From contig JAUQQM010000004.1 in the NCBI GenBank assembly GCA_030549895.1, positions 1 through 47,462 on the forward strand: a DNA stretch of 47,462 nt. Direction: 5' to 3'. This document shows positions 1 to 27,972 of this stretch, one piece after another. Position 1 is the first letter of the stretch; every line of letters starts with the position of its first letter. The position numbers and the translations under genes were made by a program. The notes beneath the pieces were generated by a model. The model was not told the DNA's origin. It saw only the letters and a program-made list of their open reading frames with translations, and made no database searches. This stretch comes from Patescibacteria group bacterium. Lineage in GTDB: Bacteria > Patescibacteriota > Minisyncoccia > UBA6257 > HR35.

Positions 1-1034
1 TGTGGTTTGTTGGTTTTTTAGAAGGAACTGCTGATGCTTTAGTCAATATTTTTAAAATTTTTTCAGGAAGGTTATCTGACTATTACAATAAAAGAAAAAT
101 TTTTGCTGTTTTAGGCTATACAATTTCCAATCTTACAAGATTTTTTCTTTATTTTGTAAATACTATTTGGCAAATATTTACCCTAAGAATTATTGATAGA
201 GTAGGGAAGGGATTAAGAGATGCACCTCGCGATGCCTTACTTTATCTTTCTTCAGACAAAGAAGAACTTAATAAATCATTTAATTTTCATAGAGCTTTTG
301 ATACTATTGGCGCTATTTTAGGCCCTCTTTTAGGTTTTTTTCTCTTAAATTATTTTTTGAACTTGAATTATAGAATTTTATTTTTACTTGGAGCCCTTGT
401 TGGTTTTTTAGCAATTTTAACTTTTATTTTTGTTGAAGATAAAAAAGAACCTCATAATAGAAACAAAAAATTTATCTTTGATTTTAAAATTTTTTCATCC
501 AAAATAAAGCTTTATCTTCTTTCATTTTTCATTTTTTCTTTAGGTTATTTTCCTTTAGCTTTAGTTCTTTTAAGGACTCAGGCAATTGATCCCTCGTTAA
601 AATTTTTCCCTTTGTTTTATTTTATTTTTAATTTATTTTTTGTAATTTTTGCTTTTATTTTAGGCAGAATTGCTGATAAATTTGGCGAGGCAAAAATTTT
701 AACTACTGGATTTATATTTGCAATTATTTCTTACTTTTTATTTTTACTTAACATTAATTTTTTTGTGATTTTAGGAATTATTGTTTTAGCATTTAGTTTA
801 GCTTCAATAGATGGAATAAAAATGGTTTATATAGGTAAAAATGTTTCTTCTGAATATTTAGCAACCTCCCAAGGCACTTTAAATGCTCTTTTTGGTATAG
901 GCCAACTTCTTGGTGGTTCATTTGCTGGTTATATTTGGACAAAATTTGGTTTTACTTATTCGTTTACAATCGGTATAATCTTAATGTTAATTTCTCTTTT
1001 AATCCTTCTAAAATCACTAAAAATCAATGCTTAA
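1..1034 (+). CDS. MFS transporter (5'-partial)
   Basis: Frame is open from nt 3 (WFVGFLEGTADALVNIFKIFSGRLSDYYNKRK...DRVGKGLRDAPRDAL...FHRAFDTIGAILGP) and continuous with the 357..1034 ORF; MFS motif A-like GRLSD and GRIADKFG; many TM helices. Confidence 0.9.
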   Translation, partial: WFVGFLEGTADALVNIFKIFSGRLSDYYNKRKIFAVLGYTISNLTRFFLYFVNTIWQIFTLRIIDRVGKGLRDAPRDALLYLSSDKEELNKSFNFHRAFDTIGAILGPLLGFFLLNYFLNLNYRILFLLGALVGFLAILTFIFVEDKKEPHNRNKKFIFDFKIFSSKIKLYLLSFFIFSLGYFPLALVLLRTQAIDPSLKFFPLFYFIFNLFFVIFAFILGRIADKFGEAKILTTGFIFAIISYFLFLLNINFFVILGIIVLAFSLASIDGIKMVYIGKNVSSEYLATSQGTLNALFGIGQLLGGSFAGYIWTKFGFTYSFTIGIILMLISLLILLKSLKINA

Positions 1035-2535
1035 GAAAATAATAATTTTTATAATAGCATCAGTAACTCTGTTAGTTTTATTATTTTTATCTCGCCCTTA
1101 TCTTGAAAAAATTTATTTTAAACCGCAAGAGAAAATAAAAGAGAAAATAGAGCAGGGAATTAGTGGTTTAGAAGATAAAGAAGTTTATGAAGTTGTTTTT
1201 GAAAATTTAGAGATACCTTGGAGTATTGTTTTTTTGAATGATAATGAGATTTTAGTTACCGAAAGAGTTGGAAAAGTTAAAATCTTAGATTTAAAAAATA
1301 AAAAGTTGCTTCAAGAATTTAAAATTGAAGAAGTAAAACATATTGGTGAAGGTGGTCTTTTGGGGGTAACCTTACATCCTAATTTTTCTCAAAATAATTT
1401 TGTCTATTTTTATTACACAACAGAAAAAGATGGAAATTTAATCAATAAAGTTGAAAGGTATATTTTAAAATTAACGCAAAACGGAAAATATGAACTTATA
1501 AAAGGAAAAACAATTGTTGATAATATACCAGCAGGAAATGTTCATAATGGTGGCCGAATAAAATTTGGTCCTGATGGCTATTTATATATCACTACTGGAG
1601 ATGCTGGTAATTCTCAAAACTCACAAGATATAAATTCTCTGGGAGGAAAAATTTTAAGAGTAAAAGATGATGGAAGCTTGCCAGAGGATAATCCCTTCAA
1701 GAATTTAACTTATGCTTACGGAATTAGAAATTCACAAGGTATTACTTGGGACAGTCAAGGAAATCTTTGGTCGATTGATCATGGAAGATCTGGAGTGAAA
1801 TCTGGTTTGGATGAAATTAATTTGATTGAAAAAGGTAAAAATTATGGCTGGCCTATTATTCAAGGAGATGAAACACAAGAGGGAATGGAAAAACCAATTA
1901 TTCATTCAGGCGAGGATATAACTTGGGCACCTGCTGATTTAATTTACTATAATGGTAATTTATTTTTTACTGGACTTCGTGGCCAAGGTTTGTATCAATA
2001 TAATATTAAAAATAAAAAGTTAACTCTTCATTTCTTTCAAAAATTTGGTAGATTAAGAGCAATAACTTTAGGTCCTGATGGTAATTTCTATATTTCAACT
2101 TCAAATAGAGATGGCAGAGGTTATCCTAAAGAAGGAGATGATAAAATAATCAAAGTTAATACAACAAAACTTTTTGAAAAAGAAATATCAAAAACAATAA
2201 TAATCGAATCTCCAAAAGCAAATGAAATCGTTGACTCTCCGCTTATTATTAAAGGTAAAGCAAAAGGTAATTGGTTTTTTGAAGCAACCTTTCCAGTTAC
2301 TTTAGTTGATTGGGATGGAAAAATTATTGCTGAAAGTTATGTTGAAGCAAAAGATAATTGGATGACAGAAGATTTTGTTCCTTTTGAAGGAAAATTAGAG
2401 TTTAAAAACCCATCCTTTCCAAATACTGACATTAACCATTTTTCTCATCGAGGAACATTAATTTTTAGAAATTCTAACCCATCAGGCCTTTTAGAAAATC
2501 AATATTATTTCGAACTACCAATCAGGTTTAAGTAA
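1027..2535 (+). CDS. PQQ-dependent sugar (glucose/sorbosone) dehydrogenase family beta-propeller fused to a C-terminal Gmad2-like Ig domain
   Basis: LEIPWSI, GEGGLLG, HNGGRIKFGPDGYLYITTGD, GIRNSQG, NYGWP; C-terminal SPLIIKGKAKGNWFFEATFPV...WMTEDFVPF...NPSG; N-terminal membrane anchor. Confidence 0.85.
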   Translation: MLKKIIIFIIASVTLLVLLFLSRPYLEKIYFKPQEKIKEKIEQGISGLEDKEVYEVVFENLEIPWSIVFLNDNEILVTERVGKVKILDLKNKKLLQEFKIEEVKHIGEGGLLGVTLHPNFSQNNFVYFYYTTEKDGNLINKVERYILKLTQNGKYELIKGKTIVDNIPAGNVHNGGRIKFGPDGYLYITTGDAGNSQNSQDINSLGGKILRVKDDGSLPEDNPFKNLTYAYGIRNSQGITWDSQGNLWSIDHGRSGVKSGLDEINLIEKGKNYGWPIIQGDETQEGMEKPIIHSGEDITWAPADLIYYNGNLFFTGLRGQGLYQYNIKNKKLTLHFFQKFGRLRAITLGPDGNFYISTSNRDGRGYPKEGDDKIIKVNTTKLFEKEISKTIIIESPKANEIVDSPLIIKGKAKGNWFFEATFPVTLVDWDGKIIAESYVEAKDNWMTEDFVPFEGKLEFKNPSFPNTDINHFSHRGTLIFRNSNPSGLLENQYYFELPIRFK

Positions 2536-2880
2536 TTTTATTTTAATTTATGATTAAATTAAAAGGAAAAATAGGTATAGGTTTTATATGCTCAACCTAT
2601 AATTCAACCCTTTCTACAAATCACACAATAATGCTAAAAAATTTAAATTAATTTTTTATTACGCAAAATAGAAGAGAATTTTGGAGATTAAAGTAAAAAG
2701 TATAAACGTCGGATTTAAGTTTTTTATGGTTTATATAAATAAAACATCTTTATGACTTTATCTTTGTGATTAACAGGTTTACCTTTCTTAACAGAAAAAA
2801 TTTTATAAATAAATTTATCAGCTAATTTTAAAACTTAGAACGATGTTGAAACATTATAAATTATGTTATAATAGTAGTTC

Positions 2881-3501
2881 ATGAGATTAGCTTATTTTAG
2901 AAAATCTAATTTTGATTTTGAAAAAACTTTATATAATTTAAAGGAAGAGTTAAATAAGGAAGGTTTAACTTTGATAGGAGAGTTTAATCTTGATGACTTT
3001 GGTAAAGTTTTAAATGTTTGTAATTCTGAGTGGATAACGAAAATTATTGAAAATGCTAAAGATTTTATTGGCTTACTACCTTGTTTAATTGTAATTTTTA
3101 AGAAAAATGATGATATTTTTGTTGGTATTGGAAATCCAAGTTTAATAGGGGAAATATCTGATAATTCTGAAATTATAGAATTAGCTCAGAAAGTTGATTT
3201 ATCTCTTAAAAAAATAGTAGATAATGCTTGTGGCGTTGGTCCTCTTAAAATTAAAAGTATTAAACTTTATGCAACCACTACTTGTCCTTATTGTAAAATG
3301 GAGGCTGCTTGGTTAGATGAAAATAAAATTAAGTACGAAATTGTTTATGTAGATATTAATCCAATAGCTGCGGAAGAAATGGTAAGAAAGACTGGCCAGA
3401 TGGGCGTACCAGTTACAGAAATTATTTTTGAAAATGGTGATGTCGAATATGTTATTGGGTTTGATAAATATACCCTTCAAAATTATCTTTTTAATAAATA
3501 A
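2881..3501 (+). CDS. DUF302-like domain fused to a glutaredoxin (NrdH/YruB-like) domain
   Basis: N-terminal LNVCN...GLLPC (DUF302-like); C-terminal YATTTCPYC...MVRKTGQMGVPV...IGFD. Confidence 0.75.
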   Translation: MRLAYFRKSNFDFEKTLYNLKEELNKEGLTLIGEFNLDDFGKVLNVCNSEWITKIIENAKDFIGLLPCLIVIFKKNDDIFVGIGNPSLIGEISDNSEIIELAQKVDLSLKKIVDNACGVGPLKIKSIKLYATTTCPYCKMEAAWLDENKIKYEIVYVDINPIAAEEMVRKTGQMGVPVTEIIFENGDVEYVIGFDKYTLQNYLFNK

Positions 3502-15766: not shown

Positions 15767-16006
15767 ATGAAGAAAATTTTTAAAAAATTAAAATACATTA
15801 TTTTCTTACCATATCTTGTTTTTTTAGGATTCATTTTCTATATTCTTTTTATCTGGCAAGAAAAGTCATCAGGAAGTTTTCTAAGTGGTAAAGCTATGGG
15901 ACTTACAGGTATTTTGATGGTTGCTTTTTATTATACCCTTTTTCTTGTGGCAATTTTTATTATTTCTAAAGTTTTAAAATTTATAATCAAAATTATTAAA
16001 AAATAA
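15767..16006 (+). CDS. small two-TM membrane protein
   Basis: 79 aa, two hydrophobic helices, operon-like spacing. Confidence 0.65.
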   Translation: MKKIFKKLKYIIFLPYLVFLGFIFYILFIWQEKSSGSFLSGKAMGLTGILMVAFYYTLFLVAIFIISKVLKFIIKIIKK

Positions 16007-16049
16007 AATCTCTAATTCCACATTCTTAATTCTATATTCTTAAATTTTG

Positions 16050-16066
16050 ATACCCCTATTGGGTAT
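16050..16066. promoter_or_regulatory. putative CsoR operator upstream of the Cu-ATPase
   Basis: Inverted repeat ATACCC-CTATT-GGGTAT; the same TACC-N7-GGTA geometry occurs upstream of csoR. Confidence 0.7.
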
Positions 16067-16094
16067 TTTATTTTTTAGGTATAATTAAATTGAG

Positions 16095-18881
16095 ATGAAA
16101 AAATATATTTGTCCAATGGGGTGTATTGAGCCACAGGAAGAGCCTGGTAATTGTCATGTCTGTGGAATGAAACTTGTTGAAGTTGAGGATGTTTCTAGCG
16201 AAAGTAGTATTCACATCAGTTCGCGAGAAAGTTCGAAGAATTTCACGGCTCAAAACAAACATCACTGTCACCGTGCTGAAGATTTTTTAAATAAATTTTG
16301 GCTTTCTTTAATTTTGACTATACCTATAATTCTTTATTCTGATGTTTTTCAAAAATTTACTGGAATAAAATTGCCATCTTTCGAGGGGATTCAATATTTA
16401 ATTTTAATTCTTGGCTCAATTATTTTTTTCTATGGTGGCTTTGTTTTTCTTGTTGGTGCTTATCGAGAAATTAAGGCTAAAAATTCTGGTATGATGACTT
16501 TGATTGGTTTAGCCATATCTTGTGCATATGTTTATAGTGTTTTTGCTGTTTTATTTAAAATTGGGCGTGAATTTTTCTGGGAACTTACGAGTTTAATTAC
16601 GATTATGCTTTTAGGACATTATTTTGAAATGAGATCAGTTTCTTCGGCTCAAAGAGCACTGCAGGAAATTGAAAAATTATTACCAGATATCGCTGAGAGA
16701 ATTATTATGTCGCGAACAGTTACGAACCACTCGCGAACCTCTGCGAACAAAAATAAAGAAATTTTATATAAAGATCTTAGCTACAAAATTGTTGGTTTAT
16801 TATTCAAGATAAAGAGAGAATTGGGTCTAGGCCATAAAGAAAAAATATATGCTAATGCTTTCGAAATAGAACTTAAAAACAGTGGAATAAATTTTGAAAG
16901 AGAAAAAGAGATACAGTTAATTTACAACGATAATGTAGTTGGAAAATATAAACCAAATTTTATAATTGAAGATAAAGTAATAATAGAATTTAAAGCATTA
17001 CCTTTAGTCACAAAAAGAGATAAAAAACAAATATGGCATTATCTTAGAGGGACTAAATATACATTAGCACTTTTAGTAAATTTTGGTAAAAAAGATGTAG
17101 AGATATATAGGATAGTACATTCTAATAAAGGTACACATCCTTCAAATGATATTTACGTGAGTTCGCAGAATGGTTCGCATATTAGTTCGCAAGATCGTTC
17201 GCAAGAGTTCGCAACTGAAAATAATGTTCGCAATAGTTCGCGAGAAAGTTCGCAAGAGTTCGCGACTGAAATTATAAAACTCGAAGAACTTAAAGTAGGC
17301 GATATAGTTTTAGTAAGACCTGGAGGAAAAATTCCCACTGATGGAGTTGTTATTGAAGGGAAATCAGAAGTTAATGAAAGTATGATTACTGGTGAAAGTA
17401 AGCCAGTTTTGAAAGAAATAGGTTCAGAAGTTATTGCTGGAACAATTAATGGTGATGGAATGTTGAAAATTAAAGTAACAAAAATTGGTGAAGAGACATT
17501 TTTAGCGGGGATCAAAAGATTAATTAAAGAAGCTCAAGCCTCAAAATCAAAACTTCAGGTTTTAGCTGATGTTTTTGCTAAATATTTAACATTTATCGCT
17601 ATTTTTATTGGTCTTTTAAGTTTTACTCTTTGGCTTTTGGTTAAAAAAGATTTTGCTTTTGCTTTAGAAAGATTAGTTACTATTTTGATTATTGCTTGTC
17701 CTCATGCTTTAGGTTTAGCTATTCCTCTTGTTGTTGCTATTTCAACATCTTTAGCAATTCATAATGGATTTTTAATTAGAAATAGACTCCAACTTGAACT
17801 TGCAAGAAAAATAGATATTGTTTTATTTGATAAAACTGGAACCTTAACTTCAGGAAAATTTAAAGTGAAAAAGATATTAACACAAATCAGTTCGCGAGAG
17901 GGTTCGCATATTAGTTCGCGAGAAGGTTCGCAAGAATTAACGATCCTCCAACTTGCAGCTTCTTTAAGTCAATATTCTTCTCATTTTATCTCTCAAGGAA
18001 TTTTAGAAAAAGCAAAAGAAGTTAGTCGCGAACTTTCGCAAATTTTACCGCAAACAGATGCGAACATTAATGGATTGGAGTTTTTAAAAGTTGAAGATTT
18101 TGAAAATTTACCTGGAAGGGGAGTGAAAGGAAGAATTGGGGGTAAGCTTTATTATTTGGGTGGTGATAATTTATTAAAAGAATTAGGTATTGAAAAACCA
18201 CAAATTACAATAAATAATAATGTTCGCAATAGTTCGCAAGAAAGTTCGCAAGATCGTTCGCAGGAGTTCGCGACTGATATTGTCGGAACGATAGTTTATT
18301 TAATTGAAGAGAAAAATATTTTAGGAGCAATTATTTTGGAAGATGAAATTAGAAAAGAATCTTTTGAAGCAGTTAAGGGGCTTCATAAATTAGGTGTTAG
18401 AGTTTTGATGATAACTGGTGATAAAAAAGAGATTGCTGAGAAAGTTTCAAAAGAGCTTGAAATCGATGAATATTTTGCTGAAGTTTTACCAGAAGATAAA
18501 GTAAATAAAGTTAAAGAACTTCAAAAGCGTGGCTTTAAAGTAATGATGGTTGGAGATGGAATTAATGATGCGCCAGCACTTATGCAAGCTGATGTTGGAG
18601 TTGCTATTGGCGCTGGAACAAATGTTGCCATTGAATCAGCAGGAATAATTTTAGTAAAGAATGATCCGAGAGACATTATTAAGATAATTGAACTTTCAAG
18701 AAAAACTTATCAAAAAATGATAGAAAATTTATTTTGGGCAACTGGTTATAATATTGTTGCTCTTCCTCTTGCTGCTGGGATTTTAGCTTTTAAAGGGATT
18801 TTACTTTCTCCAGCCTTAGGTGCAATTTTTATGAGTTTATCTACAATTATTGTTGCCTTAAATGCTTTAAGGTTAAGTTAA
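16095..18881 (+). CDS. copper-translocating P1B-type ATPase (CPH/CopB-like) with in-frame GxxExxY domain and repeat insertions
   Basis: N-terminal YICPM...CHVCGMKL; TGES, IACPHALGLAIP, FDKTGTLT, TGD, GDGINDAP, YN, MSLST; 928 aa, lengthened by insertions. Confidence 0.95.
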   Translation: MKKYICPMGCIEPQEEPGNCHVCGMKLVEVEDVSSESSIHISSRESSKNFTAQNKHHCHRAEDFLNKFWLSLILTIPIILYSDVFQKFTGIKLPSFEGIQYLILILGSIIFFYGGFVFLVGAYREIKAKNSGMMTLIGLAISCAYVYSVFAVLFKIGREFFWELTSLITIMLLGHYFEMRSVSSAQRALQEIEKLLPDIAERIIMSRTVTNHSRTSANKNKEILYKDLSYKIVGLLFKIKRELGLGHKEKIYANAFEIELKNSGINFEREKEIQLIYNDNVVGKYKPNFIIEDKVIIEFKALPLVTKRDKKQIWHYLRGTKYTLALLVNFGKKDVEIYRIVHSNKGTHPSNDIYVSSQNGSHISSQDRSQEFATENNVRNSSRESSQEFATEIIKLEELKVGDIVLVRPGGKIPTDGVVIEGKSEVNESMITGESKPVLKEIGSEVIAGTINGDGMLKIKVTKIGEETFLAGIKRLIKEAQASKSKLQVLADVFAKYLTFIAIFIGLLSFTLWLLVKKDFAFALERLVTILIIACPHALGLAIPLVVAISTSLAIHNGFLIRNRLQLELARKIDIVLFDKTGTLTSGKFKVKKILTQISSREGSHISSREGSQELTILQLAASLSQYSSHFISQGILEKAKEVSRELSQILPQTDANINGLEFLKVEDFENLPGRGVKGRIGGKLYYLGGDNLLKELGIEKPQITINNNVRNSSQESSQDRSQEFATDIVGTIVYLIEEKNILGAIILEDEIRKESFEAVKGLHKLGVRVLMITGDKKEIAEKVSKELEIDEYFAEVLPEDKVNKVKELQKRGFKVMMVGDGINDAPALMQADVGVAIGAGTNVAIESAGIILVKNDPRDIIKIIELSRKTYQKMIENLFWATGYNIVALPLAAGILAFKGILLSPALGAIFMSLSTIIVALNALRLS
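16212..16247 (+). repeat. GTTCGC micro-repeat array, in frame (HISSRESSKNFT)
   Basis: cacatcaGTTCGCgagaaaGTTCGaagaatttcacg. Confidence 0.7.
16707..17267 (+). mobile_element. about 561-bp in-frame insertion: GxxExxY nuclease-like domain (~16761-17120) flanked by inverted GCGAAC/GTTCGC arrays
   Basis: LSYKIVG...ELGLGHKEKIY...VIIEFKA...QIWHYL...LLVNFG; terminal IR GTCGCGAAC (16709) / GTTCGCGAC (17258); nine GTTCGC copies in 17155-17267; interrupts PDIAERII / EIIKLEELKVGD. Confidence 0.8.
17886..17940 (+). repeat. GTTCGC array (4 copies), in frame (ISSREGSHISSREGSQEL)
   Basis: Read directly from the sequence. Confidence 0.9.
18024..18069 (-). repeat. reverse-orientation (GCGAAC) array, in frame (SRELSQILPQTDANI)
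   Basis: AGTCGCGAACT...TGCGAACATTA; both ends are perfect 11-bp reverse complements of the ends of 18218-18275. Confidence 0.85.
18218..18275 (+). repeat. GTTCGC array (5 copies), in frame (NVRNSSQESSQDRSQEFAT)
   Basis: Near copy of 17222-17267 with one extra unit. Confidence 0.9.
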
Positions 18882-19074
18882 GATGTAGCAAAATTTTTCT
18901 ATTACTTGGAAAGAATAATTAAGAAATTTGCTAATCACTAAAAATAGGATTTATAGCTTATTACTGACTTTCATTTTATATTATTTTTGAAACAGCAGGT
19001 AAAAAGGAAATTAAATGATTTTTGTGGTGTCAACCAATAAAGTTATTTAAATCGTGTTATAATTTTATACGATT

Positions 19075-26334: not shown

Positions 26335-26882
26335 AAAAGCTTTTAATTATTATTTTATTATTTTTTGCCGTTGTTTCTTTTGCTTTTGCTCACAGTGAAG
26401 ATGCTGAATTGAATGCTGAAATTCAAAAAGGAAGGGAACTCTTTGAAAAATTACAGCAAGGAAAAATTACCTGTCAAGATTTAACTAATGAAGATTTTCA
26501 TTCAATTGGTGAATATGCTATGGAACTTATGGTTGGTGGAAGTGATCATCTTTTAATGAATCAGATGATGGAAAGAATGCATGGTAAAGAAGCTGAAGAA
26601 CAGATGCATATAAATATGGGGAAAAGATTTAGTGGTTGTGAAACTGGTTATAATAAGTCGAATTGGATGATGGGACCAATGATGAATATGCCGATGATGG
26701 GTTATTGGGGATGGTGGAATTTTTCTAATTGGAAAGGTTGGAGTATTTTTGCTCCTATTTTTGCGATTGTTGGTGTTTTTTGGATGTTAATTGTTTTAAT
26801 TTTCCCAATACTTATTTTAGTTTTATTCATTTTGGGAATAATTTATTTAATCAAAAGATTAAAAGAAGGAATTAATAAATAA
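26331..26882 (+). CDS. exported/membrane Met- and His-rich protein
   Basis: Signal peptide ending AFA-H, HLLMNQMMERMHG...QMHINMG, MMGPMMNMPMMG, C-terminal TM. Confidence 0.75.
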   Translation: MKKLLIIILLFFAVVSFAFAHSEDAELNAEIQKGRELFEKLQQGKITCQDLTNEDFHSIGEYAMELMVGGSDHLLMNQMMERMHGKEAEEQMHINMGKRFSGCETGYNKSNWMMGPMMNMPMMGYWGWWNFSNWKGWSIFAPIFAIVGVFWMLIVLIFPILILVLFILGIIYLIKRLKEGINK

Positions 26883-26883
26883 A

Positions 26884-27972
26884 ATGGTAAAGAAAATTCA
26901 AAAGGAAAATAAAAATTATTATCAATGTGAAATTTGTGGCTATTATTATGAAAGTGAAGGATTAGCAAAAGAGTGTGAAAAGTGGTGTCAAGAGTGCAAA
27001 AGCTGTAATTTAGAGATTATAAAACAAAGCATTGGTAGGGAAGAGATTGAAAAACGAAAAGTATTTAATTTTGGTTCGTTGGTTTTGGGGGTTTTGCTTG
27101 GTGGTCTAATTGGTAGTTCAGCAGTTTTTTTGATGAATTATAAATTAGAAAGCAATAAGCAAACTTCGCTTTCTTTTGTTCAGCAAGTGGTGGCGAATGT
27201 TTTACCAAGAGAGGGATTTAAAACAAAATTAGTTTTGGGTGATGCTGTTAAAAAAATGGTTGATTGTGGGGTAATTGATTTAGAAAAAATGAAGAAAATT
27301 TATAATGGGCAAATTCCTGAATATTTTCAAAAATTAATTAATGGTTATTATGAGCCTTTAGTTATTGATCAAGAAACAGCTAATTACCTTTTAAATATTT
27401 TTTGGCCTTTGGGACTTTCAAACAAAACTGAATTTAATAAAAATATTCCTTTTACTGAGAAAGATTTACCTTATTTAGCTTCAACTGGTGGTTGGTGGTT
27501 AGGTAAGAAAGATAATGGAGCTGAATATTTTAATAAATGTGAAATTATAAAATTAACTCCTAAGCAAGAGGAAATTGTTTATGAAGTAGCTCAAAATACT
27601 TTTAGGCCTTGTTGTGATAATTCAACTTTTGCTCAAGATTGTAATCATGGTTCAGCTTTACTTGGAGCTTTAGAACTTGCAGCCAGTCAAGGATATTCAA
27701 AAGATGAACTTTATAAATTGGCTCTTCAGTTAAATTCTTTTTGGTTTCCTCAAAATTATGTTAAGATTGCTTTATATAAAAAGTTAGTTGAAAATACCGA
27801 CTGGCCAATTCATGCTGGTTCGCGAGAAAGTTCGCAAGAGTTAGCATTAATAAAAGAAATTATGTCAGTTAAATATTCTTCAATTTCGGGTTATCTTCAA
27901 AACGTCGAACAAAAATTAGCAAAATTAAATCTGCCAGAATTTCAGTCATCTGGCGGAAGTTGTGGATTATAA
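26884..27972 (+). CDS. uncharacterised Cys-rich membrane-anchored protein
   Basis: N-terminal CEICG...C..C..C..C, one TM, RPCC...DCNHG, C-terminal GGSCGL; carries an in-frame GTTCGC array. Confidence 0.75.
   Translation: MVKKIQKENKNYYQCEICGYYYESEGLAKECEKWCQECKSCNLEIIKQSIGREEIEKRKVFNFGSLVLGVLLGGLIGSSAVFLMNYKLESNKQTSLSFVQQVVANVLPREGFKTKLVLGDAVKKMVDCGVIDLEKMKKIYNGQIPEYFQKLINGYYEPLVIDQETANYLLNIFWPLGLSNKTEFNKNIPFTEKDLPYLASTGGWWLGKKDNGAEYFNKCEIIKLTPKQEEIVYEVAQNTFRPCCDNSTFAQDCNHGSALLGALELAASQGYSKDELYKLALQLNSFWFPQNYVKIALYKKLVENTDWPIHAGSRESSQELALIKEIMSVKYSSISGYLQNVEQKLAKLNLPEFQSSGGSCGL
27817..27846 (+). repeat. GTTCGC array, in frame (GSRESSQELA)
   Basis: gGTTCGCgagaaaGTTCGCaagagttagca; 24 nt identical to part of the 17237-17267 array. 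Confidence 0.85.

Follow-up and report, generated by a model that had tools for sequence, protein, structure and literature searches.

Are two inverted copies of a repeat within one reading frame the two ends of a single element that has enclosed part of its host gene, or did they arrive separately? This question is raised by a contig of 47,462 nucleotides (nt) from a Patescibacteria group bacterium (JAUQQM010000004.1, assembly GCA_030549895.1), here called the window. An open reading frame (ORF) at 16095-18881 of its forward strand encodes a copper-type P-type ATPase of 928 amino acids, and in the N-domain of this protein two inverted arms, located between 18022 and 18282, enclose native coding sequence. 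The same repeat flanks a GxxExxY nuclease-like cassette further upstream in the gene. Our analysis indicates that the arms are probably two independent, in-frame, translated relic insertions of the arm repeat of the GxxExxY cassette, each in a variable loop of the protein, and that their inverted orientation is incidental.

Two in-frame insertions in the N-domain

The sequence AGTCGCGAACT at 18024-18034 is 100% complementary to AGTTCGCGACT at 18265-18275 (11 nt, inverted repeat I18). TGCGAACATTA at 18059-18069 pairs perfectly over 11 nt with TAATGTTCGCA at 18218-18228, within inverted repeat I2 (32 nt, 72% complementary, 148 nt separating its arms). A preliminary description of the locus had reported these matches, the likeness of the arms to those of the GxxExxY element and the native ATPase sequence between them, and all three observations were confirmed. 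The arms belong to the same repeat family as those of the GxxExxY element at 16707-17269 and have the same polarity, with the AGTCGCGAAC end outward and the TGCGAACATT end inward, and the sequence between them aligned without gaps to every orthologue.

The boundaries of both arms were determined from alignments and contig joints. The left arm occupies 18022-18069 on the reverse strand (heptamers 18027-18065; TTAGT-CGCGAAC...TGCGAAC-ATTA) and is a single-module insertion of exactly 48 nt, or 16 codons, relative to all orthologues; two of its four heptamers are decayed. In the DNA alignment, the window reads GAAG, then TTAGTCGCGAAC...GCGAACATTA, then ATGG, whereas the closest orthologue, in relative G013, has GAAGATGG, and no target duplication was found in these flanks. 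The right arm lies at 18202-18282 on the forward strand and contains five perfect heptamers (18222-18272). Its 81 nt replace the 12 nt TTTTATCTGAAA of the arm-less allele in G013, a net gain of 69 nt or 23 codons. Both length changes are multiples of three and keep the frame. The left arm is situated in the loop that follows N-domain helix ...ILEKAKE and the right arm in the loop preceding ...GTIVYLIE, where they encode the predicted loop residues VSRELSQILPQTDANI and TINNNVRNSSQESSQDRSQEFATD..., respectively. Both sites coincide with length differences in an alignment with the solved copper ATPase HMA4 (8q75). These data show that the arms are insertions, with their boundaries and frame established.

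Between the arms, 18070-18201 on the forward strand (NGLEFLKVEDFENLPGRGVKG...LGIEKP) is native N-domain coding sequence, collinear in all orthologues. A complete element would consist of an arm, a short loop or a GxxExxY gene, and a second arm, with nothing of the host inside. Here the arms are separated by 132 nt of native ATPase sequence, so that the locus contains two solo arms rather than a complete element. The earlier argument against simple splicing or excision is therefore well founded, as arms that enclose native sequence do not delimit a spliced or excised unit.

Arm-less alleles in co-occurring strains

Logan contigs of four runs labelled as hot-spring metagenomes were compared with window positions 16600-18400. 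In run X1, contigs identical to the window spanned both arms (records 5, 6 and 8; depth 159-211). A related strain of about 94-96% identity was represented in each of the four runs by contigs from which precisely 18022-18069 was missing (depth 353, 106, 34 and 34), and a joint 18201->18283, with 18202-18282 replaced by TTTTATCTGAAA, was found for this strain in X1 (depth 340) and X3 (depth 25.6). Co-occurring strains are thus polymorphic for the presence or absence of the arms. One X2 contig carried G instead of A at 18052, which restores a perfect CGCGAAC and thus marks the left arm as a decaying canonical module. None of the contig joints listed (four are not shown, and contigs drop rare variants) connected the two arms or switched strand between them. 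A joint 17933->18242 with a side of only 24 nt was set aside as a probable repeat artefact.

The arm repeat

The arms are built from the heptamer GTTCGCR. A module contains four to five heptamers at a spacing of about 10-12 nt, which may correspond to roughly one helical turn, and has the defined ends ...GTTCGCGACT(A/G)A and TAATGTTCGCA...; each of the two arms fits one such module, in opposite orientations. The analysed genome comprises 470 kb in 8 contigs (28% G+C, 88% complete), the window being its contig C4. Intergenic arrays on contig C6 share the module ends, and their 58-nt units display the module as AGT-CGCGAAC-n3/4-TGCGAAC-n5-CGCGAAC-n4-TGCGAAC-ATTGTTATT. The window contains 27 GTTCGCR heptamers against 1.18 expected, a number reached by none of 100 shuffles, and the whole genome contains 64. 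Arrays are confined to the ATPase ORF and the intergenic regions of C6, except for a two-heptamer relic at 27818-27836. Members of this repeat family, D1, show 62-86% identity to the cassette arms, and inverted repeat I1 has 78% complementarity over 46 nt.

The pattern GTTCGCR-n3-6-GTTCGCR was present in 14 of 25 genomes of the bacterial family and a reversed control pattern in none of them. A triple-heptamer pattern was found in 9 of 21 family genomes and in only 1 of 279 genomes of the order's other families, which indicates that the heptamer is specific to this family.

Distribution of the arms among relatives

Orthologues of the ATPase were gathered from 60 relatives and aligned as protein and DNA. 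The left arm was absent from all 15 other orthologues covering its site and from all 12 proteins of alignment A1, a set that overlaps with these 15. The right-arm site is occupied in G022 (locus L019), P0006 and G018, and empty in G013, P0004, P0005 and G010; in G022 and P0006 it is filled without a left arm. Metagenome scans gave no match for the left-arm junction and one locus, L040, for the right-arm junction. Judged by eye, L040 has the same right-arm allele as G022 and adds no new lineage. G018 carries its own complete (-,+,+) hairpin at the right-arm site. Because the (-) arm of this hairpin directly adjoins the (+) arms, the arm at this site belongs to a local hairpin and not to a partner 148 nt upstream.

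A tree calculated from non-insert columns places the window together with P0004, G013 and P0005 (support 100), none of which has either arm, and the occupied right-arm sites fall inside one nine-row clade (support 98). The tree requires one change for the left arm and three for the right-arm site. The distributions of the two arms among relatives are thus independent. The preliminary description had proposed that arms are deposited in pairs or individually and could capture host DNA. Single arms do occur, as in G022 and P0006, but deposition of this pair together is at odds with the unequal tree changes and with the separate hairpin of G018. The same two results leave the proposed capture of host DNA unsupported.

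Orientation of the arms in relatives

We found 85 same-strand heptamer blocks in 13 relatives. Adjacent opposite blocks within 1.5 kb were (-,+) in 14 cases and (+,-) in two, both of the latter being neighbours of separate elements. Orientation is therefore not random, and the earlier expectation of an excess of convergent pairs was borne out. This excess identifies complete elements as hairpins with a fixed polarity; whether the 148-nt-spaced pair is such an element does not follow from it.

Thirteen of the 14 (-,+) pairs are compact hairpins or a cassette and contain no host sequence. Nine have gaps of at most 64 nt and are compact hairpins, and one is a GxxExxY cassette (G020:C47) in frame within a transketolase-like gene, named by reading. 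Three others with gaps of 90-139 nt were considered as further cases of enclosed sequence and rejected, being continuous arrays with decayed heptamers that are read through in frame. The remaining pair (G018:C36) combines an arm flanking a tRNA with a solo (+,+) arm that lies in a murC-like gene; the native DNA separating the two is unrelated, and this pair is the single, chance-like parallel to the arrangement studied here. Blocks with no detected partner within 1.5 kb numbered 52 of 85 (27 - and 25 +), which is an upper bound. The solo (+,+) arm of G018 is read through in its murC-like (Mur ligase) gene, a name given from motifs; with 44% identity to the copy in the genome analysed here, this gene is too diverged for the arm boundaries to be defined.

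One event or two

Several observations weigh against two independent insertions. In the closest comparison the arms are coupled, the window strain having both and its three nearest orthologues (88% identity in alignment A1, up to 93% over the columns kept for the tree) having neither. An allele carrying only the left arm was not observed, and the G018 contig begins a few bases downstream of the left-arm site. The two arm-less joints in run X1 have near-equal depth (353 and 340), and the pair has the canonical (-,+) polarity that is strongly favoured in relatives (14 vs 2). The number of solo blocks was obtained with a pattern requiring two perfect heptamers, so that decayed partner arms were missed. 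The right arm of the window is pristine (five of five heptamers perfect) and the G022 copy at the same junction is decayed; a recent re-insertion or gene conversion must therefore be assumed. Furthermore, an AlphaFold2 prediction of the 928-residue protein from a 13-row alignment (mean predicted local distance difference test score 41.1, predicted template modelling score 0.32) was too poor for placing the arms and was given no weight.

The alternative that survives best is that both arms were acquired in one event and represent the ends of one element, either through a recombination or gene-conversion tract from a two-arm donor or through a two-ended integration at breakpoints 132 nt apart. 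The absence of both arms from P0003 (G013), P0004, P0005 and the co-occurring strain would fit such an event, as would the similar depth of the arm-less joints and the biased polarity. That identical sites are filled in non-sister lineages, namely the right-arm site and the A-domain cassette site in G018, also speaks for a lateral transfer through recombination or homing. However, no two-arm donor allele was found among 30 loci, 51 proteins and 2 metagenome scans, the right-arm site is filled without the left arm in two lineages, and the hairpin at this site in G018 is self-contained. The left arm is decayed and the right arm pristine. Moreover, the stretch between the arms is identical to G013 at 124 of 132 nt (94%) and the upstream flank at 81 of 85 nt (95%); as both are equally close to G013, nothing points to a foreign tract. 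We consider a common acquisition unlikely and two independent insertions the better explanation.

A possible long stem between the arms

The arms had also been suggested to form a long stem, and they are indeed paired in the RNA fold of 18015-18285 (minimum free energy -65.2 kcal/mol, z -3.26, 1 of 200 shuffles folding as well). The effect is modest only, with z at -1.93 in the wider context of 17870-18285 and at -1.42 when 18015-18285 is folded as DNA. The duplex energy of the left arm is -50.5 kcal/mol with 17219-17269 in the cassette right arm, -42.2 kcal/mol with the right arm and -31.0 kcal/mol with 17886-17935. Since its best duplex is not with the right arm, the arms are interchangeable family members and not a dedicated pair. 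One may still ask whether the arms are kept for a useful long-range stem in mRNA or single-stranded DNA, which could, for example, pause translation around the N-domain or serve as an inversion/deletion switch. The local RNA fold is in line with this idea, but the weak scores in wider context and as DNA, the better partner in the same mRNA, the lack of both arms in the nearest relatives, the drift of the arm sequences and the missing joint or strand change between the arms among the listed contig joints make it very improbable.

That the arms are no insertions but native low-complexity linkers resembling the repeat by chance is hardly credible and was refuted: although the loops at both sites vary naturally among copper ATPases, the heptamer excess (27 vs 1.2 expected), the module-exact 48-nt presence/absence between identical flanks, the same module in C6 intergenic arrays and unrelated genes of relatives, and the reversed control pattern (0/25 genomes) all contradict it.

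The GxxExxY cassette

The GxxExxY cassette is situated at the A-domain site of the ATPase gene. Its left arm (16707-16749, reverse strand; heptamers 16711-16748) has heptamers at 16711, 16732 and 16742 and takes part in inverted repeats I5-I8. A complete GxxExxY/PDDEXK_3 nuclease-like domain follows at 16776-17117 on the forward strand, in frame with the ATPase as residues 226-341 (PF13366, E 8.4e-30; TIGR04256, E 1.3e-31). The right arm (17157-17269, forward strand; heptamers 17161-17264) comprises two modules of family D1 with nine heptamers. The window copy is the single GxxExxY match in the 88%-complete genome. Its codon 16956-16958 is AAT (Asn); Asp occupies this position in G018, G020:C47 and P0031, and we take it to be the catalytic Asp of the PD-(D/E)xK superfamily. 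Judging from this residue, the window copy may be catalytically dead. In contigs from runs X2, X3 and X6, base 16956 is G and the codon specifies Asp.

G018 carries a cassette at the identical A-domain site, with about 79% identity over residues 1-524. The closest relatives of the window hold a different, gene-less insertion there. In a related strain, an A-site hairpin allele lacking the gene is suggested by a joint 16739->17244 plus CTG (side 30).

Host gene and further insertions

The ATPase ORF remains open across all insertions. In profile searches it scored 549 bits against TIGR01511 (cut-off 397) and 540 bits against TIGR01525 (cut-off 346), placing it above the curated cut-offs for copper-translocating P-type ATPases, and PF00122, PF00702 and HMBD domains were matched as well. 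The translation contains the motifs DKTGT, ITGES, CPH and GDGIND. Pfam revealed no Hint/intein domain, the only domains matched being ATPase, HAD, HMBD and PDDEXK_3, and an Rfam search of 15900-19000 gave no match to a known RNA family at E up to 1. We rejected an intein or a self-splicing intron as candidates, there being no Hint or LAGLIDADG domain and no group I or II intron RNA.

Two further arms occur in the gene. A decayed (+) arm relic in the N-terminal linker (16195-16240, forward strand; SSESSIHISSRESSKN) has one perfect heptamer at 16219 and encodes a peptide common to G013, P0004 and P0005. A solo (+) arm with four heptamers, identified by heptamer scan and alignments, lies in the loop after DKTGT (17888-17935, forward strand; heptamers 17890-17932). 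The length of this array is polymorphic, as a joint 17889->17926 in runs X2, X3 and X6 drops 36 nt (three 12-nt units). The loop is an insertion hot spot in relatives, holding a full (-,+) hairpin in G010 and a GxxExxY cassette in P0031, and it hosts insertions of several distinct repeat families in G010, G022, G015, G011 and G014.

In the G022 ATPase (L019/L040), a second heptamer family, CGCGGAT/ATCCGCG, fills several loops and encodes peptides such as TQINAD and NPRESA. Because this repeat abuts the GTTCGCR arm at the G022 right-arm site, different repeat families share the same ATPase loops. (-,+) hairpins of the GTTCGCR family lie just upstream of the ATPase start codon in L039 (G010; 100-230) and L038 (G022; 140-270), and the window has no such hairpin there.

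Elsewhere in the window, the two-heptamer relic HAGSRESSQELA (27815-27850) is in frame within an unrelated 369-amino-acid ORF at 26863-27969. On contig C6, the region 380-3200 contains intergenic tandem arrays of the module at 458-585 and 1902-2105 and a relic at about 3040-3110. Each tandem array sits after a duplicated 3' end of a LamG-like gene, and the arrays alternate with small PIN-like and DUF433-like ORFs and another repeat of about 40 nt; all these gene names were assigned by reading and not by search. The layout looks like that of a cassette array.

Proposed origin of the arms

Both arms would originate from the GxxExxY-linked hairpin, inserted as solo modules or representing hairpin halves. 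In its complete form the module provides the inverted arms of a hairpin that optionally carries a GxxExxY (PD-(D/E)xK-like) gene. At this locus, one (-) module of 48 nt and one (+) module with a net gain of 69 nt would each have entered a separate length-variable loop, to be simply read through as added loop residues. Their inverted orientation would be one of the four combinations possible for two solo arms, and they would have no joint function in excision, inversion or capture of the 132 nt of native sequence.

Taken by itself, the heptamer contains no stop codon; in the intergenic arrays on C6, all six frames are interrupted by stops. Since every coding copy observed preserves the frame and intergenic arrays are not open in this way, the arms are probably translated as loop extensions. 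We rejected the idea that the repeat is designed to be open in any frame, as stops occur in the spacers and not all six frames of the modules are free of them. The family presumably is or was mobilised by GxxExxY nucleases, and its mobility would depend on this nuclease-like protein. Because the only GxxExxY copy of the genome has Asn at the conserved Asp position, we infer that the arms are now immobile relics.

A more speculative possibility, to which we give little credence, is that the arm module is itself the insertable unit. Single modules would then be written at recurrent hot loops with exact ends and no target duplication, and the two ends of an element could land at separate breakpoints. 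Writing might proceed by nuclease-triggered templated repair or by one-ended events of the GxxExxY element.

Comparison with known systems

The closest published analogue is the Rickettsia palindromic elements (RPEs), which, according to PMC10969869, are in-frame insertions in unrelated housekeeping genes, read through as fold-compatible peptide segments. In-frame read-through in a coding gene is also found here, with insertions of 48 nt and net 69 nt in an open frame. By their description, an RPE is a single unit of about 150 bp to which no gene is linked; the repeats analysed here are arrays of 7-nt heptamers, their complete form is a (-,+) hairpin able to carry a GxxExxY nuclease-like gene, and solo arms and tandem arrays are common. 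The hosts also differ, Rickettsia on the one hand and a lineage of the candidate phyla radiation (CPR)/Parcubacteria type on the other.

MITEs, the miniature inverted-repeat transposable elements, offer a second comparison. As described in PMC5896051 and PMC10969869, Coxiella QMITE1 and QMITE2 are non-autonomous inverted-repeat MITEs that overlap ORFs and are polymorphic between strains, features that are shared by the repeats described here. The MITEs of these two papers have target-site direct repeats, in contrast to the 48-nt arm. The combination of terminal inverted repeats and target-site duplication that defines a MITE was not found, the left arm being a single non-palindromic module. 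The arms also differ in being internally repetitive heptad arrays, and the linked gene encodes a small PD-(D/E)xK-like protein and no known transposase. A module-exact 48-nt insertion without target duplication is unlike the trace of a classical cut-and-paste MITE.

GxxExxY cassettes were found both in the window and in G020:C47; relatives also contain hairpins and solo arms. ORF-bearing 23S rRNA intervening sequences and homing-endonuclease elements likewise place a small selfish gene within a stem, at recurrent sites in conserved genes. The likeness extends to the filling of the same site in non-sister lineages. However, RNA excision of the kind seen with intervening sequences would destroy the mRNA here, no intein or intron signature is present, and the two N-domain arms flank host sequence and not a gene.

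Our literature search found no description of GxxExxY cassettes or of the arm repeats, GxxExxY appearing in one paper as a passing domain label. For PDDEXK_3/PF13366 it returned a classification-table entry with the function 'Unknown', and for in-frame palindromic elements in Patescibacteria/CPR nothing relevant. The repeat family, which has a linked nuclease-like gene and colonises genes essential to candidate-phyla bacteria, is apparently unpublished.

Significance

Although the pair captures no host DNA, the locus is informative about the repeat family. It provides an exact presence/absence polymorphism between strains that are an estimated 95% or so identical, involving one 48-nt module and no target duplication, and it gives evidence that insertions recur in the same loops of the protein in different lineages. 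These facts, together with the fixed polarity of complete elements and the lost conserved Asp in the sole nuclease copy, constrain models of how the element moves. The locus also marks P-type ATPase loops that tolerate 16-190 extra residues. If the module should prove to be the insertable unit, a gene segment could become bracketed by element ends, as here, and ultra-small bacteria would thereby have taken an initial step toward the transfer or shuffling of protein segments.

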